A stretch of 63,887 nucleotides of DNA, filler included, from a bacterium (GCA_028719205.1; 3 parts of 3 records of this genome joined end to end with filler, not necessarily neighbours in it); one strand, 5' to 3'; positions 20,036 through 49,875 are shown, numbered from the whole stretch's first letter. A program made the numbers and translations. Notes: generated by a model from the letters alone, not told the origin.

Positions 20036-23000
20036 GTGAAAATAAAAATAACCTCAGTAATATTATTATTTATTTCCCTGTGTTTCAAAGGTTTATACGC
20101 GCAGCCTCCAAATATTCAATCGGTTTCTCCCCGTATGGGCAACAAGGCCGTTAAAACTGAAATAATTCTTACCGGCGAAAATTTTGATACTTCATGCAGG
20201 GTATATATTGAAGCCGGAGGCCCTTACCTGGCAGGTGGTTTGGAAACCAAAGGAAGAGGCTCCAGTGTCTATATATCCGGCTTTTACGCGTATGTCGCGG
20301 ATGCCTGGGAAGGGCTGCATATTATAGATATCAGCGACCCTTTTAACCCGAAAATGGTAAGCAGTGTAGATACTCCCGGTTACGCGTTTAGCGTTTTTAT
20401 TTCAGGTAATTACGCGTATGTCGCGGATTGGAACGCGGGATTACAAATTATAGATATCAGCGACGTTCGTTATCCCAGTATAGTAGGGCATTTGGATACT
20501 TTAGGCCGCGCGATAAAAGTATTTGTATCAGGTAATAATATTTGTGTTTTAGATGAAAGCGCCGGGATGCAAATTATAGACGCAAGTTACCCTTTTACCC
20601 CCAGCATTATAGGCAGCGTGGGAATCAGTAATAGCGCGACAGGATTATATGTATCAGGTGATTATGCTTATGTGTCAGACAAAGAAACGGGATTATATGT
20701 AATAGATATAAGTAATCCAGCAAATCCTTCTATTAAAGGACAAGTAGCCACTTCGGGATGCGCTTCGGGAGTTTATGTATCAGGCCGTTACGCCTATGTC
20801 GCGGATGGAATAGCAGGATTAGAGATAATAAATTTAAATAATCCTGCCAATCCTGTTATTGAAGGCCATATCAATATTCAAGGCAGCGCGCTTGGAATAT
20901 ATGTATCCGGTAATTACGCTTATGTCGCGGAAAAAGATAACGGGCTGCAAATTATAGATATAAGTGACCGCGTTAAACCTAACATAGTGAGTATGCTGAA
21001 CATTGCAGGCGCGAGAGAAATTTTTGTTTCGGGTAATCATGCGTATATAATCGAAGGATCGGGTTTAAAGATTGTAAATATCGGCAGTCCGGTGGATCCC
21101 AGCCTTATAGATATTATCGATACTGAGTCTGAAGATTCACACATTGCTCCGCAAAAATTAAAAACGGATAAAGGGGCCTTGAAATTTAACGTAACGGGGG
21201 CTATAAATACAGGTGGTAACGCGGTTGGAGTACATATATCAGATAAGTATGCTTATGTGGTGGATTGGCAAACAGGATTTAAGTTAATAGATATAAGTGA
21301 CCCTGCCTATCCCGTTATAAAAAGCAGTGTCCAGATTGATTGCGCGTGGGGAGTAGAGATATCAGGCAATTATGCTTTGATAGCGGATGGAATGGCGGGA
21401 TTGAAAATAATAAATGTAAGCGATCCGAATAATCCGGTTATAGCCGGAAGTTTAAATACCGGGGGTAACGCGGTTGCTGTTTTTGTAAAAGATAATTACG
21501 CGTATGTTGCCAATGAGGGGGGAGAATTAAAAATAATAGATATAACCAGTCCTGATAATCCTGTTATAAAAGCCAGTTTAGCTACTCCCGGTTCCTTAAA
21601 AGGGGTTTGGGTATCGGATAAATTCGCGTATATCGCGGATGGAGAAAAAGGTTTAACGGTAATAGAAATAAGTAATCCCCTCAAACCTGTGATTAAAAGC
21701 AATGTTAATATTTCAGGTGAAACCCGGGGGATATATGTATCAGGTAATTATGCCTATGTTAGTGCCGGAAATAATGGATTAGTCATAATAGATATAAGCG
21801 ATTCCTCTAAACCTATTGTAATGGGCAGTATAACAATTGATTACGCGTGGGGAGTTTTTGTTTCGGGTAAATATGCTTATATAGCAAACAGTTTAAAAGG
21901 ATTATCGGTAATAGATATAAGCAATCCGAATAATCCAAAATTAATAAGTAATATTAATATGCCAAGTAGCGCGGTTGGGGTTCATGTAATAGGAAATTAT
22001 GCCTACGTTGCGAATTGGGACGCGGGATTGACGGTAATAGATATAAGCGCTCTGGCTAACTTTGATTTTTCAAATGAAAATAAAAAAGATACTTTCCAAT
22101 CTTATGGAAATATAAATGGGCTCTATGCGACAGATGATTATGCTTATGTTGTAAATAATAATACAGGATTTAATATCGTTAAAATAGGTGCTCCGGCTAA
22201 TTCTAAATTAATAACCAGTGATAAAAAACAGAATAGGGCATATGAGATCAGTGTATCGCGTAATTATGCCTATATCGCGAACGGGAAAGACGGATTGCAG
22301 ATAATGGATGTGATAAATCCGTTCAATACCAAAATAAAAGGAAATTTAGAAATTGATGGAAATACAGTTTGTGTTTTTACAGCGGGTAATTACGCGTATG
22401 TTTCAAGTGACGAGGGTTTTTTTAGGATTTTAAATATAAATGATCCTAATAATCCTAAAATCGTCGGCAATATTAATAATAATTACTGTCCCTTTGAGAT
22501 TGTTGCCGCTGGAAATTATATATATGCCGCGGACGGATTATCAGGATTAGGGATAATAAATATAAATAACCGGACTGAGCCTAAAATTGCCGGCCGTATC
22601 AGCACTGATGGAAATGTAGCGGGAGTAGATATAGCCGGTAATTATGCCTATGTCGCGGATGGGAATGCCGGATTTAAGGTGCTGGATATACAACATAGCA
22701 GGACTGAGGGAAATAGGGTATTAAGCAGTATTGGAACCCCGGGTTACGCGAATGGGGTTTGTGTGTCAGATGATTTTGCCTATGTCGCGGACGAAAGAGG
22801 CGGGCTTCAGATAATAGATATAAATGATCCCGCTTATCCGGTATTAGCAGGTTATGTGAATGCTTATTACGCGACAGAAGTATTTACATCGCCTAAATAT
22901 ATATATGTCGCTGATGGAGATTCGCTGCTCGTGCTGCATAAATTAAGCACAAGTGATTTTCTTCGCCAGACAAAAGTAATTAGCAATAAAATAATAAAGG

Positions 23001-23113
23001 CTATAGTCCCGGAGGGGTTAATTCCCGGCAAATACAACATAAAGATAATAAATTCCTTAAATGAGCAAACTATCCTTCATAACGAGTTTATTCTTGCCGC
23101 TTCAGATAAGTGA
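20036..23113 (+). CDS. Secreted LVIVD-repeat protein (21 repeats) inside a split IPT/TIG domain
   Basis: Signal peptide; about 42-aa repeats V.VSGNYAYVAD...GL.IIDIS.P in three blocks of seven. Confidence 0.85.
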   Translation: MKIKITSVILLFISLCFKGLYAQPPNIQSVSPRMGNKAVKTEIILTGENFDTSCRVYIEAGGPYLAGGLETKGRGSSVYISGFYAYVADAWEGLHIIDISDPFNPKMVSSVDTPGYAFSVFISGNYAYVADWNAGLQIIDISDVRYPSIVGHLDTLGRAIKVFVSGNNICVLDESAGMQIIDASYPFTPSIIGSVGISNSATGLYVSGDYAYVSDKETGLYVIDISNPANPSIKGQVATSGCASGVYVSGRYAYVADGIAGLEIINLNNPANPVIEGHINIQGSALGIYVSGNYAYVAEKDNGLQIIDISDRVKPNIVSMLNIAGAREIFVSGNHAYIIEGSGLKIVNIGSPVDPSLIDIIDTESEDSHIAPQKLKTDKGALKFNVTGAINTGGNAVGVHISDKYAYVVDWQTGFKLIDISDPAYPVIKSSVQIDCAWGVEISGNYALIADGMAGLKIINVSDPNNPVIAGSLNTGGNAVAVFVKDNYAYVANEGGELKIIDITSPDNPVIKASLATPGSLKGVWVSDKFAYIADGEKGLTVIEISNPLKPVIKSNVNISGETRGIYVSGNYAYVSAGNNGLVIIDISDSSKPIVMGSITIDYAWGVFVSGKYAYIANSLKGLSVIDISNPNNPKLISNINMPSSAVGVHVIGNYAYVANWDAGLTVIDISALANFDFSNENKKDTFQSYGNINGLYATDDYAYVVNNNTGFNIVKIGAPANSKLITSDKKQNRAYEISVSRNYAYIANGKDGLQIMDVINPFNTKIKGNLEIDGNTVCVFTAGNYAYVSSDEGFFRILNINDPNNPKIVGNINNNYCPFEIVAAGNYIYAADGLSGLGIININNRTEPKIAGRISTDGNVAGVDIAGNYAYVADGNAGFKVLDIQHSRTEGNRVLSSIGTPGYANGVCVSDDFAYVADERGGLQIIDINDPAYPVLAGYVNAYYATEVFTSPKYIYVADGDSLLVLHKLSTSDFLRQTKVISNKIIKAIVPEGLIPGKYNIKIINSLNEQTILHNEFILAASDK

Positions 23114-23202: not shown

Positions 23203-24771
23203 ATGCAAAAGGAAATTAATATTCTTATAGTGGATGATGACGCGGTGTTTTGTCAGCTTCTGATAGATATTTTCAGTGAAAATAATTGTAAGCTGGTAAA
23301 TGTAGGAAGTATTGCCCTTGCCAAAAATGAGTTATCGAAAAAATTTTATAACATTATTTTACTTGACCTAAAGCTCCCTGATGGTTCAGGATTGGATCTG
23401 ATAAAATACATAAAAAAAATAAATGAAGACATAGCCATAATTGTTTTCACAGGGTTCGCGTCATTAGAGACTTCAATCTCCGCTATGAACGAAGGTGCCT
23501 TTTCTTATATGAAAAAGCCGGTTAATATTGATGAACTTAAGGTAATAATCAGTAAAGCTCTTAAAATGCAGGAACTTTCTTATAAGAATAAAGAATTGCT
23601 GATCAGGCTGAAAGAGCTTAGCTTGAAAGATTCTCTGACAGGTTTATATAATTATGGATATATGACAGAAAGGTTATCTTCTGAACTTAAAAGAGCAAGA
23701 AGGTATGCTCTGCCTTTTTCAATTATTATGATGGATCTGGATTATTTTAAATCCGTTAATGATACTTACGGACACGAATTTGGAGATCTTGTCTTGAGGG
23801 AGTTAGCGCATTTCTTAAAAAAATCCGCGAGAAGCAATGATGTTGTTGTGAGGTATGGCGGTGAGGAATTTGTTGTGCTTATGCCAGATACAGACAAAGA
23901 AGGCGCTATTAAATTCGGCAGGCAGTTGCTGTCATCAATAAGAGAGCTCAACTTTAAAGATAAAGATAAAAATATAAAGATCAAATTAAGTATGGGAATA
24001 ATAAGTTTTCCCGATGACGGGGTTGAGGAAGATTCTGATTTTTTGAGTCTGGTGGACCGTGTCGTGCGCTATATTAAAGAAACAGGAGGAGACAGGTTAT
24101 GTACCTTTGAAATGATAGATACAAAGGATTTGAAATCTATTGGAGAAGAGAACGTTCCTGTTGATATAAATAAATTAAAACAAAAACTTTCCAGAATGGA
24201 GGATAGGGTAAGCCATGCTCTGTTAGAATTGCTTTATGGTTTTGCCAGAAAAGCGGAATCTAATGATAGTTATTCTAATGACCATATTGAAAAAATGGTT
24301 TTAATAGTCACAAAAATCGGAAAAGAAATGGCTCTTTCTGCCAGGGAAATGGAGACTTTGAAGTATGCCGCTATGTTTCATGACTTAGGTAAGATAGCGG
24401 TTCCAAATAAAATTTTGCAAAAAGGCGGAAAGCTTACCGTAAGTGAATATAATAAGGCGAAAAAACACCCGGAAATCGGGGCGGATATTATTAAAGGCGC
24501 TATTTTTTTGAAGGATATAGTTCCAATAATTTATCATCACCATAAAAGATTTGATGATACAAAAATTTCCAAGCGTGATATCCATAAAGAAATACCCTTA
24601 GGCGCAAAAATTGTGGGAATAGCGGATGTATATCTGGCATTGATCTCGGACAGGCCGTATCGAAAAGCCCATAGTAAGGATGAAGCTTTAAAGATCATCA
24701 AAGAAAATTCCGGCAAACTATTTGATCCGAAGATAGTTAAAATATTTTTAAAAATATTGGAATCTATTTAA
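23203..24771 (+). CDS. Response regulator with GGDEF and HD-GYP-like domains
   Basis: REC (VDDD, LDLKLPD, KP), GGEEF with RxxD I-site, HDLGK. The GYP loop is absent. Confidence 0.9.
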   Translation: MQKEINILIVDDDAVFCQLLIDIFSENNCKLVNVGSIALAKNELSKKFYNIILLDLKLPDGSGLDLIKYIKKINEDIAIIVFTGFASLETSISAMNEGAFSYMKKPVNIDELKVIISKALKMQELSYKNKELLIRLKELSLKDSLTGLYNYGYMTERLSSELKRARRYALPFSIIMMDLDYFKSVNDTYGHEFGDLVLRELAHFLKKSARSNDVVVRYGGEEFVVLMPDTDKEGAIKFGRQLLSSIRELNFKDKDKNIKIKLSMGIISFPDDGVEEDSDFLSLVDRVVRYIKETGGDRLCTFEMIDTKDLKSIGEENVPVDINKLKQKLSRMEDRVSHALLELLYGFARKAESNDSYSNDHIEKMVLIVTKIGKEMALSAREMETLKYAAMFHDLGKIAVPNKILQKGGKLTVSEYNKAKKHPEIGADIIKGAIFLKDIVPIIYHHHKRFDDTKISKRDIHKEIPLGAKIVGIADVYLALISDRPYRKAHSKDEALKIIKENSGKLFDPKIVKIFLKILESI

Positions 24772-24781
24772 GGAGTACGGA

Positions 24782-25973
24782 TTGTCTTACAAAAATATTT
24801 TAATTCCCAATTATGAAATTATTGAAAAACTCGGGGAGAGTTCTCAATCGATTGTTTACAAAGCTTTTAATAAAAAAGACCCTCAAAAATTATTGGTTAT
24901 TAAAGTTCTAAAAGTAGGCTATCTTCAGGAACATCAAAAATTGCATTTCCAGCAGAAGATCGAAAGGCTGAAAGTTTTAACTGATCCGATGCTTTTAAGG
25001 CCGTTGTTTTTTGGCGTATCTGATGGTGTTCAATATATTGTAAGGGAATACTTTGACGGGATTCCTCTTGATGCCTGGGCGGAAGCGCAGGATAAAATAA
25101 GTTTAAAAGATTTTTTTACAATAAGCTGTCTTTTGGCGCAGGCAATCAGTAAAATCCAGGAAGCCGGTATCATTCACGGAGGTTTTAAACCCCACAATAT
25201 TTTAATACATCCAAAGAGCCTTGATATAAAAATCAGCGGTTTTATTTCATCTCTGGATGTCAGGGAAGTCAGCCATTTTATTTATGACCATTTTTTTGTA
25301 AAAGGCACGCTCGCGTATACGTCGCCGGAGCAAACCGGACGGATAAATCACAGGGTGGGTTTTTCTTCAGATCTTTATTCTTTAGGAATTATTTTTTATG
25401 AACTTTTGACCCGAAGGCTTCCTTTTTTCTCGCTGGACCCTCTGGAATTAATTCATTCGCATTTAGCGGAAGAATCGCCAAATCTCAGTGATTTGGATCC
25501 TAAAATTCCTAAAATTCTAAGCAAGATAGTGACAAAATTAATATTTAAGCAGCCTGAAAAACGTTATCAGAGCGGTACAGGATTGCTTGCCGACCTCCTC
25601 CAGTGCCAGAATGAATATTTAACCAAAGGAACTATTTCTGAGTTTGCCCTGGGGAACTATGATTATACGCGGCGTGTTACATTTGTTTCAAAAATAGTAG
25701 GGCGCGACAATGAAGCAAAAATGATCCTGGATGAATATGAGGAAGTTTCAAAGGGTTCTTTCCGTTCAATGTTTATTTCCGGTTTGCCCGGTATCGGTAA
25801 GACCCGTTTAATACAGGAACTTCAAAGGCCTATTATAAAGCGGCGGTGTTATTTTGTTTCAGGAAAATTTGATCTATACCAGAAAAATATTCCCTATAGC
25901 GCTCTTATCCAGAGCTTAAGAAATTTAATCAGGACCTATTTAACGGAAAGCGATAAACGGGTTGAGACCTGGA
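24782..25973 (+). CDS. Ser/Thr kinase-like plus AAA ATPase sensor protein, truncated by contig end
   Basis: GTLAYTSPEQTGR, DLYSLG, VGRDNE and Walker A GLPGIGKT. Confidence 0.85.
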
Positions 25974-26073
25974 NNNNNNNNNNNNNNNNNNNNNNNNNNN
26001 NNNNNNNNNNNNNNNNNTTAATTAATTAANNNNNNNNNNNNNNNNNNNNNNNNNNNNNNNNNNNNNNNNNNNN
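25974..26073. other. Artificial contig spacer
   Basis: 100 nt of N with a central TTAATTAATTAA (stops in all frames). Confidence 0.97.
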
Positions 26074-26210: not shown

Positions 26211-26243
26211 AAAAAGGCCAGCCGTTTACCAAACGACTGGCCT
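26211..26243 (-). terminator. Intrinsic terminator downstream of the sbcC-like gene
   Basis: Stem AGGCCAGTCGTTT/AAACGGCTGGCCT followed by a T run on the minus strand. Confidence 0.7.
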
Positions 26244-26358
26244 CAGTAAGCATGTTTCTCATTTAAGAATTAACTTGCCCTTTTGTTATCTCATAATATT
26301 ATCAACTAAATTTATTTTCTACCTATTCGTATTATTTGTCAAGTACTATTTTTAATTC

Positions 26359-29300
26359 CTATTGTTTAACCTTACCGTCAACCATTTCGATTTTATTTGA
26401 AAATTCTTCTTCCAGTTCTTTAAAATGGCTGATAATAAATATCTGGTCAAAGGCATCGGATAATTCACCTGTTATAAGCAGTTTAACCAACGCATCCCTT
26501 CTTTCTTCATCAAAGGCGCTTATCGGTTCGTCAAGGAATATAAAAGACGGAGCCGCGCCTAGTTCTTCGGGCAGTGTCGCGAGCGCGAATGAAAGCCTTA
26601 AAGCCAAAGAAATCTGGTCTTTTGTACCACCGCTGAACATTTTTTTAGGAATGTAAGTATTTGCCTGGTCATCAAACATTTCCAGGCGGTAATCAGAAGG
26701 ATCGATTCTTACATCCATATACCTGTCCGCGGTCATATATGGAATTAACCGGGCCATATTCAGTTCACATCTTGGAAGTACATCCTCAAAAATCCTTTTT
26801 CTTGTGGTAACCAGTATTTCTCTTGCTTTTGACATTACCTCTGAAGTCTTTCTCATTTTATTTAATCCGTCTTCACCTTTATCCAGTTCTTTTTTTGTTA
26901 AACTTACGCCTGCACTCCTTATTTCATCTCTTTTCAGGGTGCAAAATCTGATTGTTCCTATTAGATCCTCTTTCTTCGCTAAAAATTCGGCTTTTTTAGT
27001 TCTATCAATATTTTGTCCATGCAATTTTTCACTGATAAATATCAATCTTTTTTCACTATTATCTTTATTGATTATTTCCAGCTTTAACCTTGACTCTTTT
27101 TGCAGTTTTAAATCATTTAATTCTTTTTTTGATTCAAGTTCAGAACGGTCCTTTTCAATCTCTTTCATTATGTAACCCATTTGTTCAATGATTTTTTCAG
27201 GATCATTGCCAAGTTTATATTTCTCACTAAGTGTATTTAGTTTCTTTATATATTCATTTTTTTCTTCTTTCATAAATTCAATATCTTTTTTTAAAGTATC
27301 AACATCCAGCTGAACATTTTCTCCGACAATTTCCTGAGCTTCTTTCATATATCCTTCAATAAGAAATTTATGATCCTTGATCTTGGATTCCAAAAGCGCT
27401 AAATTTTTAGAAGTATCCATTAAAGAACCCGGCATATATGTACTTTGCAAAGATATTACTTTGCTTTTAACATTTGCCAGAATTTCATTATTTTCCGATA
27501 TATCAAGCAAATCCAGATCTTTTTCAGGCAAAAATGTTTTCAGTACCGGATGCGCGATTACCATTTTTTCCAGTTCTGTTTTATGTGATAAATACAATTT
27601 ATTTTTCTCCGCCAATTGCGATTCTATGGCGGTTATTCTTCCGCTGTCTTCGATTTGCCTCTCTATTTCTTTTTCAACCCGGACAATCTCCGATTCAATT
27701 TTCACATTATCATCATTATTAAATGAAGACTTTTTCGTTAACTCACCTATTTGCGCATTTATAGCACGCTCTTTTTCCATAAAAATATTCAGATCATTAT
27801 CGATCTTTTCAGGGGTTGTTTCTCCTGAAAATTCATCCAGGACAAAATCTTCTTCTATATGCTTTATATGTGATTCAATTTCGAGAAGATTCTCTTTGAT
27901 CTGATTAACTTTTTCTTCAATATCATCTTTCTTTAAACCGCCAAAAGCATTTTCAATTTCCTTTATCCTGTTCCTGCCGGCTTCTAAACTGGATGGAACA
28001 GAAACGCCCTTTTTTTTCATCAAATCTTCCAGCTCATTTTTTGCTTCTGAATCACTTATTTGCTCGCTGACATCCTGTTTCCGGCCATCAAGTTTAGATA
28101 GATTTTCCTTAATATTCCTGATACTCTTTAGTTTTTCTGAAATTTCTGAGGAATAGGCCATGATTATTTTTTTATCTAAATAGGCCCTGTACAATAATAG
28201 TAATCCCAGCACACCGCTGAATATTCTTAAATACCACGGGATAACGCCTATGTTAATAACCACTATTATAAAACTCATAACCACTATTAAAATATACGAA
28301 TAAATTCTTTTATTTAATTCCTTGGAATCTGTCTCTAATTTTTCAACAGCATAATTGATATCTGCTATTTCCTGTTCTTTTGAATGGATCTCTTTTGTAA
28401 TTGAAGCTTTTTTATCAAAAGATGAGGATATTTTCTCCCATAAAGACAGCAAATCTTTTTCCTTAAAACTATCTGTTTTTGCTCTTATACTCTTTAATTC
28501 AGCAAGCAATATTTCTTCATTTTTCTTAAATTCTATTATTTCCTTTTCCTTGTTTTTCCGCAGTATTTTACCCTCAATAAAATATTTTTCTTTGAAACTT
28601 TCCTTCAGGTTTTTAAGGTCTTTTAATCTATTCTGTAATAAATCAATATTTTTACCTTTACTTGACCAATCTTTTATATCTTTTTTCCTTTCAGCCAGGT
28701 CAAGCTTTTCCTGAAGCAATCTTTCAATTAAAGGCAATACTTTCTCTAAAGCATCCTTTATCTCCCTGATTTCTCTATATGCTTCTTCTTTATCCTGTAA
28801 TTCATCTTTAACCATAGAGAGTTCTTGTATCATCTTTTCTTTGTGTACAATTCCATTTGTATTTTCTTCAATAAATTCAGTTAAATAAGATAATTTTTTT
28901 ATGGATCCTTCTTTTTTACCTATCTGGGTTATAATATTCTTCATTTCCCCCATAGAATTCAGATCTTGCTGTTTTTTCTCCAGATTTATCTTATCAATTA
29001 TATTTAAATTTTTTTCCAGGTCACGCAGGTCATTTTCAAGATATTTAATTTCGGATTCTTCCTGTTTTATCCTATCTACAAGTATTTCTTTTTCATCCTG
29101 CAGGCTTAAAAAATCCAGATAATTATCAAGATCTTCTTTTTCCTTTGTGATAACAGGCAATTTTTTAAGAATAGACATTAGTTCTTTTTTCTTTTCAATT
29201 AATTTAAGGTCATTTTCCAGGCTATTACATTCTTCTTTTAATTTTTCTTCAAGACAAATAAAAGCATCCATATTTAAAAGCTTAGCGATCGCTTTTTCTC

Positions 29301-29766
29301 TTTGCTGATGGCTTATATTTTCAATTTTATCCAGATTTTGCTGTTCAACAAAACAGCTATTCAGCAGTGATTCACTATCCAGTCCAATTTCCTGTATTAT
29401 CCTGCTGTTTACCGCAATAGCATTTTCCAGTACTTCTTTTTTGCCATCGGCACAAGTAATATTCAGATAATGATGGTTTTCTCCATCACGACTGCATTTC
29501 CTATTGATAGTCATATATGAATCCTTCAAAGCTACTCCTAGCTCGACTTCTAATTCATCGCTTGAATATGAAATAAGAGAAATATTTCCTCCTTGCCCGA
29601 CTACAAGCCCTCTTCCAAAAAGCGCGAAAAATATTGCCTCAAACAGAGTACTTTTTCCGGATTCATTTTTTCCAATTATCAAAATTGACCCCTTTTCGGG
29701 AAACGTAAGCCTGTCAATATCTAATTGTTTAAATCCTTTAGCTTTTAAGCTTAATATCTTTACCAA
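26359..29766 (-). CDS. Rad50/SbcC-like SMC ATPase with central hydrophobic hairpin
   Basis: Walker A GKNESGKST, Q-loop, long coiled coils, signature FSGG, Walker B FLDEP, ISH. No central CxxC. Confidence 0.88.
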   Translation of the reverse strand: MVKILSLKAKGFKQLDIDRLTFPEKGSILIIGKNESGKSTLFEAIFFALFGRGLVVGQGGNISLISYSSDELEVELGVALKDSYMTINRKCSRDGENHHYLNITCADGKKEVLENAIAVNSRIIQEIGLDSESLLNSCFVEQQNLDKIENISHQQREKAIAKLLNMDAFICLEEKLKEECNSLENDLKLIEKKKELMSILKKLPVITKEKEDLDNYLDFLSLQDEKEILVDRIKQEESEIKYLENDLRDLEKNLNIIDKINLEKKQQDLNSMGEMKNIITQIGKKEGSIKKLSYLTEFIEENTNGIVHKEKMIQELSMVKDELQDKEEAYREIREIKDALEKVLPLIERLLQEKLDLAERKKDIKDWSSKGKNIDLLQNRLKDLKNLKESFKEKYFIEGKILRKNKEKEIIEFKKNEEILLAELKSIRAKTDSFKEKDLLSLWEKISSSFDKKASITKEIHSKEQEIADINYAVEKLETDSKELNKRIYSYILIVVMSFIIVVINIGVIPWYLRIFSGVLGLLLLYRAYLDKKIIMAYSSEISEKLKSIRNIKENLSKLDGRKQDVSEQISDSEAKNELEDLMKKKGVSVPSSLEAGRNRIKEIENAFGGLKKDDIEEKVNQIKENLLEIESHIKHIEEDFVLDEFSGETTPEKIDNDLNIFMEKERAINAQIGELTKKSSFNNDDNVKIESEIVRVEKEIERQIEDSGRITAIESQLAEKNKLYLSHKTELEKMVIAHPVLKTFLPEKDLDLLDISENNEILANVKSKVISLQSTYMPGSLMDTSKNLALLESKIKDHKFLIEGYMKEAQEIVGENVQLDVDTLKKDIEFMKEEKNEYIKKLNTLSEKYKLGNDPEKIIEQMGYIMKEIEKDRSELESKKELNDLKLQKESRLKLEIINKDNSEKRLIFISEKLHGQNIDRTKKAEFLAKKEDLIGTIRFCTLKRDEIRSAGVSLTKKELDKGEDGLNKMRKTSEVMSKAREILVTTRKRIFEDVLPRCELNMARLIPYMTADRYMDVRIDPSDYRLEMFDDQANTYIPKKMFSGGTKDQISLALRLSFALATLPEELGAAPSFIFLDEPISAFDEERRDALVKLLITGELSDAFDQIFIISHFKELEEEFSNKIEMVDGKVKQ

Positions 29767-30941
29767 TCTCTCATCTCCTCAAACCTTTTTGTTATTAATT
29801 TTATTGAATCTTCGATTATTTCTTTTTCATAATCCGTTTTCGCGTTTTTTTTCATTTCAGCCGCTACTCTATAAACCTCTTTTTTCTGGCTTAATCTTCC
29901 CCTGTTCAGCTTAATGCTGTCTCTTTCCATATCATGAATATAAAAACCTTCTCTTGATAATTCAAAGTAAAAATTTAATTTTTCGCCAATATGCCATATA
30001 TTATGAAATTTAATTTTCTGGTACACATCCCTGTTTATATTCCCTGATATTACTAATTTTAACATTTGTTTAGAATCTGAAGCCTTGATCAACTGGTTAA
30101 TTATAAATGTATTAGGGTCATCCTTATTATAAAAACTGTTAAAATCAACACAGACCTCTTCTCTTTTCTGGCAGGTAACTGGAACAAATTCAATATGGGG
30201 TTTTTTATTATTATCGATATCCAGGTAATAAAATCCCGTTTCTTTTTTTTCTGAAAAATCCAGTTTTTCGGTCGCACCCGGTAAAACAAATATTTTTTCA
30301 TTATGATAAAAATTATTCGCGGATTGAATATGTCCGGAAAATATATAATTAAAAGGATAATCATTGAAAAAATCCAAAGGTATTACAGGTTCATTTGCCT
30401 TTGGAGAGATATAACCTTCCAATCCGTAATGCATTAATAAAATATTTATTTTTACGCCATTTCCTGAATAATTGGATAAAGCTGTTTTCAAAGGATTAAT
30501 ATCACGGCACAAAATCGAATTAGTTGTCAGACCTGCGATATTTATTTCAATACCTTTAATATTAAGTTTTATATTTTCTACAATATCCTGTTTGTAAAAT
30601 ATGCTGACATTTTCCTGACGCGCAAAGATCAACTGCGGTATGATCCCGCTTCCTTTGGGAGTATCATTTGTTCCGCCGATAAAAAACGCTTTAATTCCGG
30701 CTTTTTTCAGATCATTCAATCCTTCAGCGACAGTTAACAAAGCATCGTTCCGGGGATTAGGCATGTCAAACAGGTTCCCCACATTAATATAAAGGTCCAC
30801 CTTATTTTCCAAAGCGTAGTCTATTGTTTTCCTGAAATTATCTTTTAATTTCTTACGCCTTTGCTCGACTTGAAACGGCCTCATTCTCGAAGAGTAAGCA
30901 TTTAAATGATTATCGCCTGTTAAAACTATTTTTATTCCCAT
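29760..30941 (-). CDS. Mre11/SbcD-like metallophosphoesterase with degenerate active site
   Basis: Motifs DNH, GNLFD, GTND, H, GHIQ and PGATEKLDFSE; overlaps the SMC gene start. Confidence 0.85.
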   Translation of the reverse strand: MGIKIVLTGDNHLNAYSSRMRPFQVEQRRKKLKDNFRKTIDYALENKVDLYINVGNLFDMPNPRNDALLTVAEGLNDLKKAGIKAFFIGGTNDTPKGSGIIPQLIFARQENVSIFYKQDIVENIKLNIKGIEINIAGLTTNSILCRDINPLKTALSNYSGNGVKINILLMHYGLEGYISPKANEPVIPLDFFNDYPFNYIFSGHIQSANNFYHNEKIFVLPGATEKLDFSEKKETGFYYLDIDNNKKPHIEFVPVTCQKREEVCVDFNSFYNKDDPNTFIINQLIKASDSKQMLKLVISGNINRDVYQKIKFHNIWHIGEKLNFYFELSREGFYIHDMERDSIKLNRGRLSQKKEVYRVAAEMKKNAKTDYEKEIIEDSIKLITKRFEEMRDW

Positions 30942-30960
30942 AATATTTGTTCATTCCTTA

Positions 30961-33900
30961 TCATTTTTTCCCAAATGGCCATATGATCTTAAAAACCCCT
31001 TCAATAACACTGATGCCTGCCCGGACAGTTTCACGCAAAACTTTGCCGCCCATTAAAACCGTTGTTTCAATTGTTTTTTTGCCAAAATTTAGAGTAGTTT
31101 CTAAAGTCTTTCCGGCGGCATTTTCCAGAAATTCCATGCTATTTTGCAGTCCTATCTTAATAACTACCGCTGTAATCAATCCCCAATCGCCCTTTATCTC
31201 GGGATTTTCTATCTTTCCCGTTATTTTTAGATTCAGACTGACTTTTTCATTTTTATCCCTGAGAGAATAAAATTTTTTAATGATATTTTGTCCTTCAGGG
31301 GTATCTGCTAATATCATTTTTACTTCAGGATAATATATTTCACCTGCCAAACTCAGGTCCAGGATCGGTTCAGTGGTAATTTTGTCAATTTTACCGGATA
31401 AATCCAACCGGGAATTGTTCCAGACAAAACTTAATGTGTCAAAATCAACACTATCTTCCTTTTTAACAATATTAAAAACTACTTTACTATCCAAACCTTC
31501 AGGCTTAGCAATAATATTCTTATATGAAAAATAATTATCCTTTAGATCGATATCTCCCTGAAAATTAAATATTTTACCATAATTTTCAATTTTTAAGTTA
31601 ATTTTACCGGCACCGGCTACATTTAAATCCTCTAATTCTCCGGCCATTTTAGGGGAAAAATACGAAATGATCCCTTTAATGAGCAGTTTATCACAATTTG
31701 CATCCAAATTTATATGTAAGTTATCATTTTGTTTTTTGATATTTCCTTTTACTTTAAACACAGACTGATCAATTGTATATTGGCCTGAATCAATATAAAT
31801 AATATCTTCACCCTCAGTCGTTAACCATACAAAGTTATCTGTTGAAGCGTTTGTTCTATAAGTATGGCCCTTATAAGAAATATCAATGTTATATAAATTA
31901 ATTTTTCCTTTTATTTTTTGCAGGTTTTTTTCTTTATATAAATTTGTTTCACCTTTTAATAAGCCCTTGATTTTTATATCTTTAAGCCATCCAAATGATG
32001 GTAAATATCCTGTTAACGAACTTCCGTTAAAATCATTTACTCCCCATGTTAAAATTAATTTTTTATTTTCTGAGTTGAAGTTTTCAAGTTTACCGGCTCC
32101 GTTTATTTCAAAATTATTTAACGATACATCTATATTATTGATAATAAAATTATTCTGGCCAAACGAAAAATCAAAATTAATTTCATGGTCGACATTTTTT
32201 GGTTTTCGCAGTAATTCTTTCCAGCGTGTTTCTGATTTATCAAGGTTTAATACTCCTTTGAGGTTTAAAAATTTCTTTTGCCCCGTAATATTGATTTTAA
32301 CGCCAGACATACCTGATAATTTGTAATCCTCAAAGCCCTGTATATAGTTCGGAGTTAATTCACCCCAATAAAAAGAATCAGAAATAACCATTAAATCATA
32401 TTGAGGCTGTTCTTTGTCGTAATCCACTATCTCTCCGCTAAGTGTATATTTACTTTTTAGTGAATTCAATTGTAAATTATCAATAATAAATGTATTTCCT
32501 TTCCACGTTATATCAAACAGCAAATTACCGGGAATTCCTGTATTTTTAGTAATAAAATTCCCGTACTTTAATTTTGAACCCTGAACATCCGCAATTCCTT
32601 TCAAATTTAATTTGTCACTCGTGGAATTCAAATTAAATTTTGTACTGCAATAACCATCCGGTTCGAAACTTTCTTCTTTAAACAAATTAGAAATTTTACG
32701 CACATCATCAAACACTAATTTTTTGAAATCAAGTTCCATACTTAAACCATCTGAATTTTGCGGATATATTTCAATTACTTTTGTCCTCACTTCTGATTCT
32801 CCGAAAGTCAATACGGGCTCCGAAATTAATATTTTATCCTTTTCAGGAACCAGATCAAAATTTATTTTACTTTCCATTCCATAAGGCTTATTAAATAATT
32901 TCGCGTACTGCCACATTAATGGAGTTCCATTAATACTGACAGAGTATATTGTTTTAGAAAGCTCATTATTAAATATTCTTACATTTAATTTATTGGTTAC
33001 CCCAAAAAGCCTTATTTCTTTAGGCCAGGGAGGTAAAAATGCTATAAGGTCTTCAACCCGTCCCTGCCTTAATGTTATATTTAAATCCATTTTAGGTTCA
33101 TTATCCAAAAGATTATTGATTTCTCCTTTACCGTCAACAACTAATGAATTTGATTTAACCTTAAAATCTCCCCATATTTTTACATTTTTCTCATAATTTA
33201 TATCGAAAATCAGGCCGCACATTTTATTTTTTGGTTTATATAAAACCTTTCCCCAATCCAGTTCAGCTTTTTCGAGATTAGCTTCACCAACATATTTGAA
33301 ATTATCTCCATCCACATAAAGCCTAAAAGCAAGCCTGCCATTTCCTGTAATATTAAGGTCTTTTTTTAATCCTCCCTTTAGAATATACCTCTCTTTACCC
33401 ATAAGATAATTTAAATTGTCCAGATCAATTAATAGTTCATATCTATCCCTATTTTCAACAGCGGGCCAGATCTTACCGGAAGCCTTAATGGATGAGCATT
33501 CATTTATAACCCCTGAAATATCTTCCAACACAACAATATTGGGGCTTGATGTAAAAGCCACTCTTCCGTTAACGGCGTGAACCGGTTTTTGGCCTTCAAA
33601 ATATATAAAATCAAAATTCTGGAATTTTATATCTCCCTTGTTGCGGTAGGAATCATTATTCCCTGTCAAATTCAGGGATATTTCCGTAACAATACCGTTT
33701 AAAACCGGATAATTAAAATATTGTTTATAATATGGATTAAATTTCAGCGCGTCCAATTGTTTCCCGTTGAAATGAATTTTATAACTATTTGTTTCATTTT
33801 CCACAGAGCCTAAAATTTTAAGCTCTCCTTTTGTATTTTTTATTGAAGCGCTTATTTCATAACTGATTTTTTCGCCCAGATCGAAATATCCTTTTACATT

Positions 33901-34410
33901 ATTTAAATCGGTAACAACCCTTTCCGCCGCTTTGGGTGCTGCCCTATCGTCTATTATTCTTATCTCCCCATTTTCAATAAAAATCTTTTTCAATTCAATT
34001 TTTATTTTTCCTTTTTGATCAATTTTATCGTTTTCAGTGTAAATCGGCGATATCCATTTACCATCAGGCTGGTGATAAACAGTAGTTTGAGGCTTGATCA
34101 TTCTAATTTGTTCAATAATAAATTCTTTATTTATTAATGGTTTTAATGAAAAATAAATATAAATTTTATTGCATGTAAATATCTCAGTATTATTTTCATC
34201 TTTTATCTTTACGCCGTACATTTTTATACCATAAAATCCCAAACTAATTCCTGATATTTCTATTTTTTTATGCAGATATGTTTCCACGGAGGGAAGAATA
34301 TGCTTTAAAACAACTTTATCAAGATACACATTAATTGTAATAACACTTGATATGATAATCAGCAGGATAATAAAAGTTATAGAAAAAGGGGGTTTTTTAT
34401 TTTTTGACAT
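30961..34410 (-). CDS. AsmA/DUF748-like large periplasmic beta-rich protein
   Basis: N-terminal TM helix, AsmA-like N-domain, repeated beta-strand modules, and C-terminal L.ITG.IENP followed by helices. Confidence 0.7.
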   Translation of the reverse strand: MSKNKKPPFSITFIILLIIISSVITINVYLDKVVLKHILPSVETYLHKKIEISGISLGFYGIKMYGVKIKDENNTEIFTCNKIYIYFSLKPLINKEFIIEQIRMIKPQTTVYHQPDGKWISPIYTENDKIDQKGKIKIELKKIFIENGEIRIIDDRAAPKAAERVVTDLNNVKGYFDLGEKISYEISASIKNTKGELKILGSVENETNSYKIHFNGKQLDALKFNPYYKQYFNYPVLNGIVTEISLNLTGNNDSYRNKGDIKFQNFDFIYFEGQKPVHAVNGRVAFTSSPNIVVLEDISGVINECSSIKASGKIWPAVENRDRYELLIDLDNLNYLMGKERYILKGGLKKDLNITGNGRLAFRLYVDGDNFKYVGEANLEKAELDWGKVLYKPKNKMCGLIFDINYEKNVKIWGDFKVKSNSLVVDGKGEINNLLDNEPKMDLNITLRQGRVEDLIAFLPPWPKEIRLFGVTNKLNVRIFNNELSKTIYSVSINGTPLMWQYAKLFNKPYGMESKINFDLVPEKDKILISEPVLTFGESEVRTKVIEIYPQNSDGLSMELDFKKLVFDDVRKISNLFKEESFEPDGYCSTKFNLNSTSDKLNLKGIADVQGSKLKYGNFITKNTGIPGNLLFDITWKGNTFIIDNLQLNSLKSKYTLSGEIVDYDKEQPQYDLMVISDSFYWGELTPNYIQGFEDYKLSGMSGVKINITGQKKFLNLKGVLNLDKSETRWKELLRKPKNVDHEINFDFSFGQNNFIINNIDVSLNNFEINGAGKLENFNSENKKLILTWGVNDFNGSSLTGYLPSFGWLKDIKIKGLLKGETNLYKEKNLQKIKGKINLYNIDISYKGHTYRTNASTDNFVWLTTEGEDIIYIDSGQYTIDQSVFKVKGNIKKQNDNLHINLDANCDKLLIKGIISYFSPKMAGELEDLNVAGAGKINLKIENYGKIFNFQGDIDLKDNYFSYKNIIAKPEGLDSKVVFNIVKKEDSVDFDTLSFVWNNSRLDLSGKIDKITTEPILDLSLAGEIYYPEVKMILADTPEGQNIIKKFYSLRDKNEKVSLNLKITGKIENPEIKGDWGLITAVVIKIGLQNSMEFLENAAGKTLETTLNFGKKTIETTVLMGGKVLRETVRAGISVIEGVFKIIWPFGKK

Positions 34411-34411
34411 T

Positions 34412-35110
34412 CTATTTCTTCATAAGTTCATTTAATTTATTTCCCATTTGAAATAATAAGGAAACAATAAGAAAATATATTTCTTTTGATTTATAATAAG
34501 ATATTTTTATAAAATCTATATATTTAATCTCTAATGGAAATATCATTTTTATGATAAGCATTATTATTAGAATATTTACAACATAAATAAAACTGAGAGA
34601 AAACACATATCCAATTTCATGGACATCGGATTGCTTTTGACGAAGCGCGAAAAAATTCAGGGCTAAATGAAAAGCTAAGGTAAAACCAATAAGGAATAAA
34701 AAAACAGCAAAATACTTTTCGACATAGAACATAAATGAAAAAAGCCAATAAAACAAAAAAATTAGAAAAGTATAAAACGGGAAAAAATATGGGGCTAGAT
34801 TAATCAAAAAATTTGATTTAGTAACAACAACACTACCCCCTTTTGAGGTAGCCTTCAATGATTTTACACTTCCTCCAAACATAAATGCCCAAATTGCGTG
34901 TGTAAGTTCATGCCCGAATACATACATCGTCAGAGGCTTGTATAGCAAAATATGTATTAGAAAATATCCTCCAAAACCACCTAAAAAATAATAGTGTTCC
35001 TGTGTCAATAACGTTACACCGGATACAATCTTTACAAAAGCAAAAGTAAGCCCGATTCCAAACGGGATAAGCATTAATCCTATTATAAAGAAAATAATTG
35101 AAATTATCAT
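34412..35110 (-). CDS. M50B-like intramembrane metallopeptidase
   Basis: Multi-TM protein with FGHELTH (HExxH) and NLAPYFFP. Confidence 0.65.
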   Translation of the reverse strand: MIISIIFFIIGLMLIPFGIGLTFAFVKIVSGVTLLTQEHYYFLGGFGGYFLIHILLYKPLTMYVFGHELTHAIWAFMFGGSVKSLKATSKGGSVVVTKSNFLINLAPYFFPFYTFLIFLFYWLFSFMFYVEKYFAVFLFLIGFTLAFHLALNFFALRQKQSDVHEIGYVFSLSFIYVVNILIIMLIIKMIFPLEIKYIDFIKISYYKSKEIYFLIVSLLFQMGNKLNELMKK

Positions 35111-36384: not shown

Positions 36385-36807
36385 ATGGTTTCACATCGTA
36401 TTGTCCTGATTTTTTCCAAAGATATAGTTGATAAACCTTATACTTATCATTTGGTTAAGGATTACAATCTGTTGGTCAATATACTTAGAGCAAAAATATC
36501 TCCTGAAGAAGAAGGCCTTTTAGTCCTGGAAGTTGAAGGTAAAAGAACTGATTTTGAAAACGGAATGAAATATTTAAAAGAATATGGCGTTAAAATATTA
36601 CCGCTTGTAAAAGAAATAAAACGTGATAAAGACCGCTGTTACAATTGCGGCGCATGCACTGCGGTATGTCCCAGCGGCGCGCTGCATATTAATAAAAGCA
36701 ACTGGTTTGTAGATTTTGATGAAAAAAAATGTGTTTTATGCGAGGCTTGTGTAAAAGGCTGCCCTACCAGATCAATAAAAATATTATTCCCGGACTTTGT
36801 GAATTAA
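36385..36807 (+). CDS. NIL domain plus 2x[4Fe-4S] ferredoxin
   Basis: NILRA motif and two CxxCxxCxxxCP motifs. Confidence 0.88.
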   Translation: MVSHRIVLIFSKDIVDKPYTYHLVKDYNLLVNILRAKISPEEEGLLVLEVEGKRTDFENGMKYLKEYGVKILPLVKEIKRDKDRCYNCGACTAVCPSGALHINKSNWFVDFDEKKCVLCEACVKGCPTRSIKILFPDFVN

Positions 36808-38915
36808 TACTTATAACTCCTTTCGGCATGGCATGCTCCGCTGCATTTACCGCCTTGGGAATCCTTAATAAAATTTATCTTGATCTTGATCTTTGTTTGA
36901 TCTTCCCTGATCAACGATTGTTGATTCGATGAATGAGAATCATGGCAAGTACTGCAATTTCTTCCCCGTTTATTGTTTACATGGATAAAATGCAGATTTT
37001 TATCTCCATCGCGGAATTTTGTCTCACTATTCTTATCCGGCCGGCTGATCACGGCATTTTCCGCAAACTTGCGATTGTGGCATTCGAAACAAAGATTATA
37101 AGCATTCTCATTATAGACAACATAAGTATCTACCGGGAAGGCTGCTTTTAATAAAAATGGATATTGAGAATTGTGTGATTGATGACAATCAATACAGCCA
37201 TTCCTATCTAAAGGCTGATGCACATATTTCTTTTTTAAGATATCTTTTGTATTTTGATGGCATAGAACACACAACTTCTCTTTTTCTTCCTTAAGCTGAT
37301 ATTTATAATCCGACTCATGAGAAGTATGGCACCCAGTACATTCATTTTTCTTTATCGGCGCATGTATATAAGCGGATTTTTCAATCCTTTCATGGCATAA
37401 ATAACAAACTTCCGCGCCATCTTTTATCAGTAAATTCTTATTACTTGAACTATGCGGTTGATGGCAAACTGAGCATTGCCCTTCAGCCAGCGGCCCATGC
37501 GTATATTTTTTCGCAAGCTTAGCGCCATGGCATGTTTTACAAAGTTTTATTTCTACTCCCTGCAATAAATATTTATTTTCTGAGTTATGAGGTTCATGGC
37601 ATATTACACAATTTCCATTACTTATCGGTTTATGAACATAGGCTTCCTTTTTTTGTAATTCAATAAATTCTTTATGACAAATTTCACACAATTCCACATC
37701 TTTTTTTATCAAAAGATTTTTATTATCTGAACTATGCGGAAAATGGCAAATAATACAATCCTCATTTCCCAGTGGCCCATGGAGATAACTTTTATCGGTC
37801 ATCTTTTGCAGGTGACATCCAAAACACAGTGAGCTTTTTGCTACATTGATTCCATTGACTCCGATGCTGGTATTAACAGTATGACAGGTTGCACAAAAAT
37901 CCTTATCTTTACTCGGATGTAAATTTGATTTTTGGAATTGATCTTTTAGGTCAGCGTGACAATCTAAACACTTCTTATTCATCTGATCAGGATGAAATTT
38001 GGTTGAAAATATTTGTATTCTATTGTTTTTATTATCAACAACATATATATTCTCATCCTTATCTACAAATATTTTTTTGGGGGATAAAAAATTGCCTGAT
38101 TTTTTCCCTATTTTCCCGAATTTAAAAAGAAAACGACCCGATTGATCAAAAACCTGAATTCTATTATTATTCTCATCACAAACATAAATCAGGTCTCTGG
38201 GACTAACCATTATACCTATCGGTTCAGAAAAGTCTCCTATCTGAGAACCCGGCTGGCCGAATCTGGAAATAAAACGGCCTCTTTCATCAAATATTTGTAT
38301 ACGATTATTTCCGGAATCAGCTACATATACCTTTTTATTATATAATGCTATATCTTTAGGATTATAAAACTCTCCGTTCCTGCTGCCTTTTGAACCAAAA
38401 GTAAAAAGGTATTCACCCTCAGGATTAAAGATCTGTATTCGATTATTCCAGGTATCTACAACGTAAACATTATCTTTTTTATCAAGTTCAAGGGCAAATG
38501 GCATAATAAACTCACCCTTACCATCGCCCTTTTCTCCAAATTGAGAAACGTATTTACCTCGCATATCAAAAATAAGAATTCTATGCTGGCCTATATCGCT
38601 AACATAAATTTTGTTATTTTTACCTATCGCGATATCCCATGGAAGAGATAATTTGCCTCTTCCCATTCCCCTTTCTCCGAATTCGCTTAATAATTTCCCG
38701 TTATTTTTATTAAAAATCTGAATTTTGCCAATAAGTGTATTAGTAACGAATACCTTATCCTCACTAACCGCCACTCCAACCGGGGAATTTAAATCATTAA
38801 TATTTTTGGGGATTATATTTATTATATCTGATGTGTTTTCTGAAAAAAGACTGTGCCATGATAAAATAACAAGGAAAGAAACCAACAAAAAAACCAGCCT
38901 GTTTTTGTTTAACAT
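36804..38915 (-). CDS. Exported NHL beta-propeller fused to a multiheme cytochrome c
   Basis: Signal peptide, six NHL repeats, 14 CxxCH motifs plus terminal CSGACH. Confidence 0.9.
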   Translation of the reverse strand: MLNKNRLVFLLVSFLVILSWHSLFSENTSDIINIIPKNINDLNSPVGVAVSEDKVFVTNTLIGKIQIFNKNNGKLLSEFGERGMGRGKLSLPWDIAIGKNNKIYVSDIGQHRILIFDMRGKYVSQFGEKGDGKGEFIMPFALELDKKDNVYVVDTWNNRIQIFNPEGEYLFTFGSKGSRNGEFYNPKDIALYNKKVYVADSGNNRIQIFDERGRFISRFGQPGSQIGDFSEPIGIMVSPRDLIYVCDENNNRIQVFDQSGRFLFKFGKIGKKSGNFLSPKKIFVDKDENIYVVDNKNNRIQIFSTKFHPDQMNKKCLDCHADLKDQFQKSNLHPSKDKDFCATCHTVNTSIGVNGINVAKSSLCFGCHLQKMTDKSYLHGPLGNEDCIICHFPHSSDNKNLLIKKDVELCEICHKEFIELQKKEAYVHKPISNGNCVICHEPHNSENKYLLQGVEIKLCKTCHGAKLAKKYTHGPLAEGQCSVCHQPHSSSNKNLLIKDGAEVCYLCHERIEKSAYIHAPIKKNECTGCHTSHESDYKYQLKEEKEKLCVLCHQNTKDILKKKYVHQPLDRNGCIDCHQSHNSQYPFLLKAAFPVDTYVVYNENAYNLCFECHNRKFAENAVISRPDKNSETKFRDGDKNLHFIHVNNKRGRNCSTCHDSHSSNQQSLIREDQTKIKIKINFIKDSQGGKCSGACHAERSYKY

Positions 38916-49775: not shown

Positions 49776-49875
49776 NNNNNNNNNNNNNNNNNNNNNNNNN
49801 NNNNNNNNNNNNNNNNNNNTTAATTAATTAANNNNNNNNNNNNNNNNNNNNNNNNNNNNNNNNNNNNNNNNNNNN
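49776..49875. other. Artificial contig spacer
   Basis: Same N/TTAATTAATTAA/N layout as the first spacer. Confidence 0.97.

Follow-up and report, generated by a model that had tools for sequence, protein, structure and literature searches.

A Mre11–Rad50 pair with a degenerate nuclease site and a hydrophobic hairpin in place of the zinc hook

Among the described systems closest to the gene pair discussed here is SbcE/SbcF (YhaN/YhaO) of Bacillus subtilis. SbcE is described as an SMC/SbcC-like ATPase without CxxC, whose central domain is hydrophobic, insoluble and provided with a conserved Pro. It interacts with the SbcD-like SbcF, whose gene adjoins its own, has roles in double-strand-break repair and transformation, and is seen in foci at the competence pole (PMC2811018). 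A comparable pair, composed of a Mre11-like and a Rad50-like gene, is encoded in a 63,887-nucleotide (nt) stretch of bacterial DNA (GCA_028719205.1, genome G000), which is referred to in its entirety as the window. In the original prediction, this pair and the two genes upstream of it were taken for a repurposed, non-cutting, membrane-tethered SMC module with a link to envelope function.

Two further systems are helpful for comparison. For the yeast Mre11 variants D56N and H125N, it is reported that there is no endonuclease activity in vitro and that the Rad50-Xrs2 complex is still formed, with both residues located within conserved phosphodiesterase motifs (PMC2625443). For Lamassu, LmuB and LmuC were proposed to stem from SbcC and from the SbcC-binding tail of SbcD without the nuclease, and no membrane hairpin is described for Lamassu in the accessible part of that paper (PMC12663957). 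In a literature search, no description of a transmembrane-hairpin Rad50 was found, and the hookless branch was described only through the 'hydrophobic central domain' of SbcE.

The locus consists of four open reading frames (ORFs), all on the minus strand, which are listed here in the 5' to 3' order of that strand:

34412..35110, minus strand: M50B-like polytopic membrane protein of 232 amino acids (aa) with HExxH motif (Pfam, Atlas and homologue alignment)
30961..34410, minus strand: AsmA-like (DUF748) protein of 1149 aa with N-terminal membrane anchor (PF05359, Atlas)
29760..30941, minus strand: Mre11/SbcF-like phosphoesterase of 393 aa, full length, with degenerate active site (profiles, alignments)
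26359..29766, minus strand: Rad50/SbcE-like ATPase of 1135 aa with TTG start and long coiled-coil arms (profiles, alignments)

The gene calls confirm the four co-oriented genes of the original prediction along with their spacing, namely a 1-nt gap, a 19-nt gap and a 7-nt overlap.

The best explanation for the last two genes, to which a probability of roughly 0.55 is given, is a natural nuclease-dead, ATPase-proficient and membrane-anchored Mre11–Rad50 complex that was kept after the loss of NurA and HerA. The pair belongs to a hookless SbcE/SbcF-like branch, where a two-helix hydrophobic hairpin takes the place of the zinc hook. This hairpin would be inserted in the cytoplasmic membrane, with the ATPase heads and Mre11 remaining cytoplasmic. 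In most members of the branch, the pair is the distal half of a NurA-HerA-Mre11-Rad50 operon for DNA-end resection, from which NurA and HerA would have been lost in the present lineage. Four of the eight metal-binding or catalytic residues of Mre11 have disappeared stepwise (N91T, then H92N, then D56N and H206Q), which would put an end to nucleolytic processing. The ATP-driven machine may still bind or tether DNA, with Mre11 as a structural subunit of Rad50. If the two proteins do form a complex, its state would be that of a natural separation-of-function complex.

The Mre11-like protein was identified by its matches to PF00149 Metallophos (32.7 bits, cut-off 21.5 bits) and to the NCBIfam model Mre11_Sulfo (E 1.2e-24). 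Its closest solved relative is the Mre11 of M. jannaschii, 3AUZ (phmmer E 8.6e-13, residues 8-272). It has the calcineurin-like phosphoesterase fold, and five motifs align to the solved Mre11. The motif states were fixed by alignment to 3AUZ and to 30 family members. The GDNH motif is intact, as are H171 and H204, which leaves D10, H12, H171 and H204 as the unchanged catalytic positions. The complete set of D, H, D, N, H, H, H and H is not present, with four of the eight metal-binding or catalytic positions altered (D56N, N91T, H92N and H206Q):

30774..30776, minus strand: N56 of motif II (GNLFD), codon AAC, where the canonical residue is the bridging Asp (alignment)
30666..30671, minus strand: T91 and N92 of motif III (GGTND), codons ACA AAT, where the canonical residues are Asn-His (alignment)
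30324..30326, minus strand: Q206 of motif V (GHIQ), codon CAA, where the canonical residue is His (alignment)

These are the three motif changes that had first been read in a full-length SbcD/Mre11 homologue, and the alignments bear them out. Judged by these residues, the Mre11-like protein is very probably unable to cut DNA. The orthologue in another genome of the same genus (G001) has the codons GAT, ACA-CAT and CAT instead. A single base-calling error is disfavored for D56N because the codon differs at two positions. In a second study (run X4), short low-depth contigs with 88-93% identity to the Mre11-like gene were found for window positions 30606-30773. One piece keeps T91-N92 with only synonymous changes nearby, and the other probably has A91-H92; the depth is about 2 for each, and they were phased by the count of differences.

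How unusual these residues are can be seen from an alignment of 152 sequences, including 148 search representatives, P0006 and the window protein. Among the sequences that cover the respective site, the canonical residue is found in 127 of 135 for D56, 131 of 140 for H92 and 140 of 146 for H206 (94-96%). Position 91 of motif III is more variable, with Asn in 94 of 139 aligned representatives. Within the family itself (31 sequences), N56 is unique to the window protein and N92 is limited to the window protein and P0005. Q206 is likewise unique to the window protein among the 30 family sequences that cover motif V. Degenerate sites do recur, as at least two changes are present in 18 of 123 full-site sequences and at least three in 10 of 123. 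Six cluster representatives of the Mre11-like proteins (P0140, P0158, P0166, P0167, P0184 and P0142) have at least three catalytic positions changed. Several of these carry an Arg at the motif III His, which we take to be LpxH-like.

The partner of the Mre11-like protein shows matches to SMC_N, to archaeal Rad50 NCBIfam models and, weakly, to SbcC_Walker_B. The closest solved relatives of its ATPase heads are archaeal Rad50 proteins (E 7.7e-22). In a 41-sequence alignment, the columns of Walker A, the Q-loop, the signature SGG and the D-E of Walker B are invariant. The Asp of the D-loop is conserved in at least 90%, and the consensus of the H-loop is ISH. All motifs were placed by alignment:

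29647-29673, minus strand: Walker A
29338-29349, minus strand: Q-loop
26623-26637, minus strand: signature
26524-26544, minus strand: Walker B
26509-26520, minus strand: D-loop
26425-26436, minus strand: H-loop

The protein is a Rad50/SbcC ATPase in its general build, with a split ABC-type head whose halves are parted by long coiled coils, modelled by AlphaFold2 as long helices. A CxxC zinc hook is not present anywhere in the protein. The apex is formed by a different element:

28177..28311, minus strand: hydrophobic two-helix hairpin at the apex, aa 486-530, with the turn IPWYLR (Kyte-Doolittle, AlphaFold2)

The kept Walker A/B, signature and H-switch, the missing CxxC and the central two-helix hydrophobic stretch had all been claimed before, and each was recovered here; the hairpin coordinates are 2 nt off those given initially. 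An AlphaFold2 model of the full protein (41 sequences) reached a mean confidence score (pLDDT) of 74.4. In its apex, a helix of residues 375-503 is followed by a turn (504-510) and a second helix (511-569), with pLDDT of about 81-86, and the turn falls in the middle of the hydrophobic stretch. The hairpin shares just 35-42% identity with close relatives and retains its hydrophobic character. Most likely, as predicted from hydrophobicity and the monomer model, it inserts into the cytoplasmic membrane with the heads and Mre11 on the cytoplasmic side. With the hairpin at a relative position of 0.45, the C-terminal arm exceeds the N-terminal one by about 160 residues. For residues ~570-780 of the ATPase, the AlphaFold2 model is broken up into short helices, and its pLDDT drops below 50 at 642-656 and 676-687; this part may be an extra near-membrane element.

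The hairpin is not special to this locus. For the ATPase, 49 matches were listed, including the query. A central hydrophobic segment of 20-60 aa (mostly ~40-50 aa) was found in 43 of these 49, at relative positions of 0.38-0.51. A hook-type CxxC occurs in none of the 43 hairpin-bearing matches listed, one of which has an incidental C-x-x-C inside the hydrophobic segment. Conversely, the five most distant of the 49 matches listed have a central CxxC and no hydrophobic segment, and one more has neither. The source names of the matches listed include Halobacteriota, Promethearchaeota, Nitrospirota, Chloroflexota and Pseudomonadota. The hookless membrane-hairpin branch is widespread in archaea and bacteria. 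The term 'membrane-tethered' in the original prediction is thus supported at the level of prediction, with the hairpin present and the hook absent, as a trait of the whole family. A metagenome scan with the Mre11-like protein gave one weak, irrelevant locus only, and a plasmid search with the ATPase gave only head fragments from Halobacterium megaplasmids (5 records, 13% coverage).

The genomic context of the family was determined with a profile scan (9-sequence alignment) of species-representative genomes, yielding 24 loci from Bathyarchaeia, Geothermarchaeota, Ktedonobacteria, Caldisericota, Nitrospirota and Armatimonadota. Wherever the ATPase gene extends as far as the apex, as it does in 14 family loci, the hairpin is present. 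NurA and HerA adjoin the pair in 15 of the 24 loci, and a further locus has a HerA gene truncated at the end of its contig. Neither NurA nor HerA is found within 8.8 kb upstream in a Ktedonobacterales locus, and the flanks of four loci are too short to judge. The remaining three loci (L018 and L020 from Nitrospirota, L021 from Armatimonadota) hold a GTHD-type Mre11-like gene on its own, without Rad50-like, NurA or HerA genes in the vicinity. Its neighbors in the Armatimonadota locus code for an N6 DNA methylase and an MrfA/Hrq1-type helicase. The usual NurA-HerA-Mre11-Rad50 operon points to DNA-end processing.

In G000, the pair is not part of such an operon. NurA was not found in G000, G001, G002, G003 or G029. 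A clear HerA was not found in G000 either, where two partial matches to DUF87, the HerA central domain, reached 27-33 bits (cut-off 23.2), each covering less than one third of the profile. No other Mre11/SbcD-type gene was found in G000. Neither was another SbcC, as AAA_23 gave this gene and three strong matches that were read by frame length as SMC, RecN and RecF. The search for a canonical sbcCD elsewhere in the genome, as had been suggested, therefore found none.

A different context is seen in one genus of another phylum. In 3 of 3 species (L052 = G041:C40 1511-13798; L043; L053), genes for a Y4YQ-like membrane protein and an STN-domain secretin are followed by those for the Mre11-like protein, a Rad50-like protein of 620-630 aa with hairpin and a WYL regulator. 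At least in G041, the gene for this regulator is followed by type I-C cas genes (Cas3, Cas5d, Csd1). The secretin-adjoining pair is a second case of an envelope-spanning neighbor, although secretins also serve in DNA uptake.

When compared to the described systems, the pair resembles SbcE/SbcF in its hookless ATPase, the hydrophobic center and the Mre11/SbcD-like partner gene immediately upstream, judged by the published description of SbcE. The match of the window ATPase to AAA_27 (the YhaN N-terminal family) stays below the 22-bit cut-off with 20.0 bits, while its relatives exceed it with 27.7-29.4 bits. In contrast to SbcE/SbcF, archaeal Rad50/Mre11 models give the highest scores for the heads and for the Mre11 partner, the family context is NurA-HerA instead of yhaM, and the Mre11 partner is degenerate. 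With the archaeal NurA-HerA-Mre11-Rad50 operon and the bacterial SbcCD, the pair shares the two-subunit design, the head motifs, the Mre11 fold and the order of Mre11 before Rad50 with overlapping stop and start. It differs from these by the hydrophobic hairpin instead of the zinc hook, by the NurA that was not found and the lack of a clear HerA, and by the change of four of the eight catalytic residues.

The yeast alleles mre11-D56N and mre11-H125N have the same Asp to Asn and His to Asn changes. Presumably, yeast D56 is the motif II Asp and H125 the motif III His, which fits the motifs GDLF and GNH in the alignment. The yeast alleles are, however, single laboratory mutations, whereas both changes occur here naturally, together with N91T and H206Q. 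Lamassu, finally, is proposed to combine a Rad50/SbcC-derived ATPase with a non-cutting SbcD-derived partner, and LmuB is the best PADLOC match of the window ATPase (E 1.2e-17). The locus does not qualify as Lamassu, with PADLOC matching the ATPase only and giving 0 matches for the other three proteins. Furthermore, the Mre11-like protein keeps the full fold and not only the C-terminal tail, and there is no LmuA-type effector at the locus.

The main rival to the complex outlined above is that of early decay: the pair would have become functionless after the loss of NurA and HerA, and the active-site changes would be the first visible damage. This is unlikely, yet it is the most serious of the rivals, and the age of the changes speaks for it. 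The G001 orthologue, which is 76% identical, has the motifs GDLFD, GTHD and GHVH, and a relative with 83% identity (P0005) has GDLFD, GAND and GHMH. T91 is shared with members from Nitrospirota, Caldisericota and Armatimonadota, and N91T is therefore old. H92N arose before the split from P0005, and D56N and H206Q occur in the window protein only. The decay of the nuclease site is thus recent and stepwise. It had been foreseen that intact motifs in close homologues would count against a long-standing repurposing, and this is what was partly found: the label 'non-cutting' holds for this species, as far as four changed positions of eight can tell, and does not hold as an older trait. Early decay is also in line with the recurrence of degenerate sites in the family, with the NurA gene not found in any of the three genomes of the genus (G000, G001 and G002), with the different regions downstream of the pair in these three, and with G002, where no Mre11 or Rad50-like gene was found (92% complete, 250 contigs).

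The state of the genes themselves argues in the opposite direction. The reading frame of 4.6 kb is unbroken in G000, in G001 and in the P0005/P0018 relative. For G000 vs G001, the ratio of nonsynonymous to synonymous substitution rates (dN/dS, NG86) amounts to 0.089 for each of the two genes, Mre11-like and Rad50-like, with 0.056-0.114 for four neighboring genes, in line with purifying selection at the usual rate of this region; with dS saturated at 1.5-1.8, the ratio averages the entire divergence and is silent on selection in the terminal branch. With G001 as outgroup, the lineage-specific changes in the window lineage and in P0005 number 21 vs 21 for Mre11 and 98 vs 84 for the Rad50-like gene (p = 0.30); neither gene shows an accelerated rate. 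Two of the 21 Mre11 changes fall on the eight catalytic positions (chance under uniform placement: 0.067), which points to a relaxed constraint specifically at the Mre11 active site. In the Rad50-like protein, the identity to G001 is 85% and 93% for the heads, 67-75% for the arms and 35% for the hairpin, whose hydrophobicity is kept. The heads are thereby more conserved than five of the six locus genes compared (71-83%). Damage is limited to the nuclease site and spares the ATPase motifs. Within these limits, the evidence suggests that the genes are not plain pseudogenes.

Several points nevertheless weigh against the reading as a retained nuclease-dead complex, in addition to the saturated dS. 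The pair is dispensable in the genus, since G002 is without a Mre11 or Rad50-like gene as far as found. The dead state is young, with the site of a 76%-identical orthologue almost canonical. The codons of N56 and Q206 are known from the assembly, and the short, low-depth pieces obtained from four sequencing runs do not cover them. The 58 C-terminal residues of Mre11, presumed to be the Rad50-binding part, are only 60% identical to G001 vs 78-79% elsewhere in the protein. Membrane insertion is predicted from hydrophobicity and a monomer model. Residual or altered catalysis may occur, since Asn and Gln can bind metals. Moreover, the absences in G000 have the standing of 'not found', as its assembly consists of 68 contigs and is 92.7% complete.

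According to the second rival, all four genes would serve a single envelope machine: a membrane-tethered SMC module that does not cut DNA would act together with a lipid bridge, the AsmA-like protein, and a protease, the M50-like protein. The M50B-like protein stays below the PF13398 threshold (17.9 bits vs a 26-bit cut-off) and is best called M50B-like. Its Atlas neighbors are Peptidase_M50B clusters at 0.97, with PF13398 in 20-38% of the members, and the HExxH motif (H67-E68-x-x-H71), N100, P107 and Q160-x-D162 are invariant in the five homologues aligned. The AsmA-like protein matches DUF748 (PF05359) with 66.9 bits, above the 50-bit cut-off, in residues 11-168 only of its 1149; it has a hydrophobic N-terminus, and its Atlas neighbors are AsmA/DUF748 clusters (0.95). 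Membrane segments are predicted for three of the four products. The spacing of the genes is tight, and in a consensus scan no terminator-like matches were found in the gaps among them. A strong one lies 115 nt past the Rad50-like stop:

26214..26244, minus strand: terminator-like hairpin with a 14-bp stem, 7 G-C pairs and a T-run (consensus scan only)

Three weaker terminator-like matches on the minus strand are all intragenic. Co-transcription of the M50B-like and AsmA-like genes with the downstream pair is probable.

G001 has the four genes in the same order. Its gaps measure 9 nt and, between the AsmA-like and the Mre11 gene, 88 nt, the latter of which already loosens the link; the last two genes overlap by 7 nt, as they do in G000. 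Outside of this genus (G000, G001) the order was not found, so the proposed synteny across genomes extends to these two only. G002, also of the genus, has an M50-like gene with 76% identity at a contig edge and an AsmA-like gene with 67% identity on another contig (G002:C87 1910-5367, L048). The latter is directly followed by a type I dehydroquinase gene, infC and rpmI, with no Mre11-Rad50 pair. Two frames were seen in it near residues 125-150, due to a frameshift or an assembly error, and an apparently frameshifted AsmA-like gene in a genome without the pair could be taken in favor of the machine. G002 is the most distant of the three genomes (M50-like identity of 80% vs 76%, AsmA-like identity of 71% vs 67%, for G001 vs G002). 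In G003, from the same phylum, the M50-like gene (45% identical) lies upstream of one for a TPR-PPIase protein; neither a match to the AsmA-like window protein nor any Mre11 or Rad50-like gene was found in this genome. An AsmA-like protein was likewise not found in 26 other family loci (phmmer and Pfam scans of unassigned ORFs of at least 450 aa).

Because of the gene orders in G002 and G003, the other loci without AsmA and the variable downstream region, it can be stated that the pair sits at a synteny breakpoint beside an older M50-like/AsmA-like pair. The pairs located directly after a secretin gene would fit an envelope role, but the usual partners of the family are the DNA enzymes NurA and HerA. 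The envelope machine is for these reasons regarded as improbable, and the link to envelope function in the original prediction is not supported. The adjacency to AsmA and M50 is probably a genus-specific arrangement, an accident of gene order and not a functional unit.

About equally improbable is a third explanation, where the Mre11-like protein would still act as a nuclease or another phosphoesterase with a non-canonical metal site. Half of the catalytic positions are intact, and the side chains of Asn, Thr and Gln are capable of binding metals. In LpxH, an Arg is found at the position of the motif III His. N91T alone is probably tolerated, as it is shared by members of three phyla, those of Caldisericota being found in full HerA/NurA contexts. 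On the other hand, the remaining three positions are 94-96% conserved among the aligned sequences, and here four changes are joined in one site.

The weakest proposal, which is very improbable, is a Lamassu-like exaptation, where the membrane-bound Rad50-like protein with its dead Mre11 adaptor would sense DNA ends arriving at the inner membrane and signal, inside this membrane, to the M50B-like intramembrane protease and the AsmA-like bridge, thereby coupling the entry of phage or transforming DNA to envelope remodeling, with the secretin-linked pairs as a parallel case.

As to the surroundings of the locus, the window is composed of three contigs (C35, C36 and C48), joined by N spacers at 25974-26073 and 49776-49875. 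The four genes are found on the 23.7-kb middle contig, where the end of the Rad50-like gene is 285 nt away from the contig edge. An ORF at 24782-26029 (protein kinase and AAA_16) is cut by a contig end and enters the first spacer, and is no real gene of 415 aa. The flanking regions encode a 1025-aa protein with 13 LVIVD repeats (20036-23113), a response regulator with GGDEF and HD-GYP-type domains (23203-24771) and a 703-aa NHL-repeat multihaem cytochrome with paired CXXCH (36804-38915). A recent horizontal transfer of the Mre11-Rad50 pair was rejected on composition, as the GC content of the locus (0.31-0.33) is near that of its neighbors. A promoter scan was uninformative (54 sites vs 42.8 expected), and an Rfam scan of the window gave no match at gathering score.

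With regard to the biology of the family, the locus shows that the link to AsmA and M50 is probably an accident of gene order. The pair itself amounts to an experiment of nature. Across a single genus, the state of the nuclease site ranges from almost canonical to one with four changes, among them the two known from nuclease-dead yeast alleles, with the ATPase and the reading frames under selection. As degenerate active sites recur among the Mre11-like proteins, a nuclease-independent role may be more general in that family. If the complex is functional, this branch of Mre11–Rad50 would have a nuclease-independent job at the membrane.

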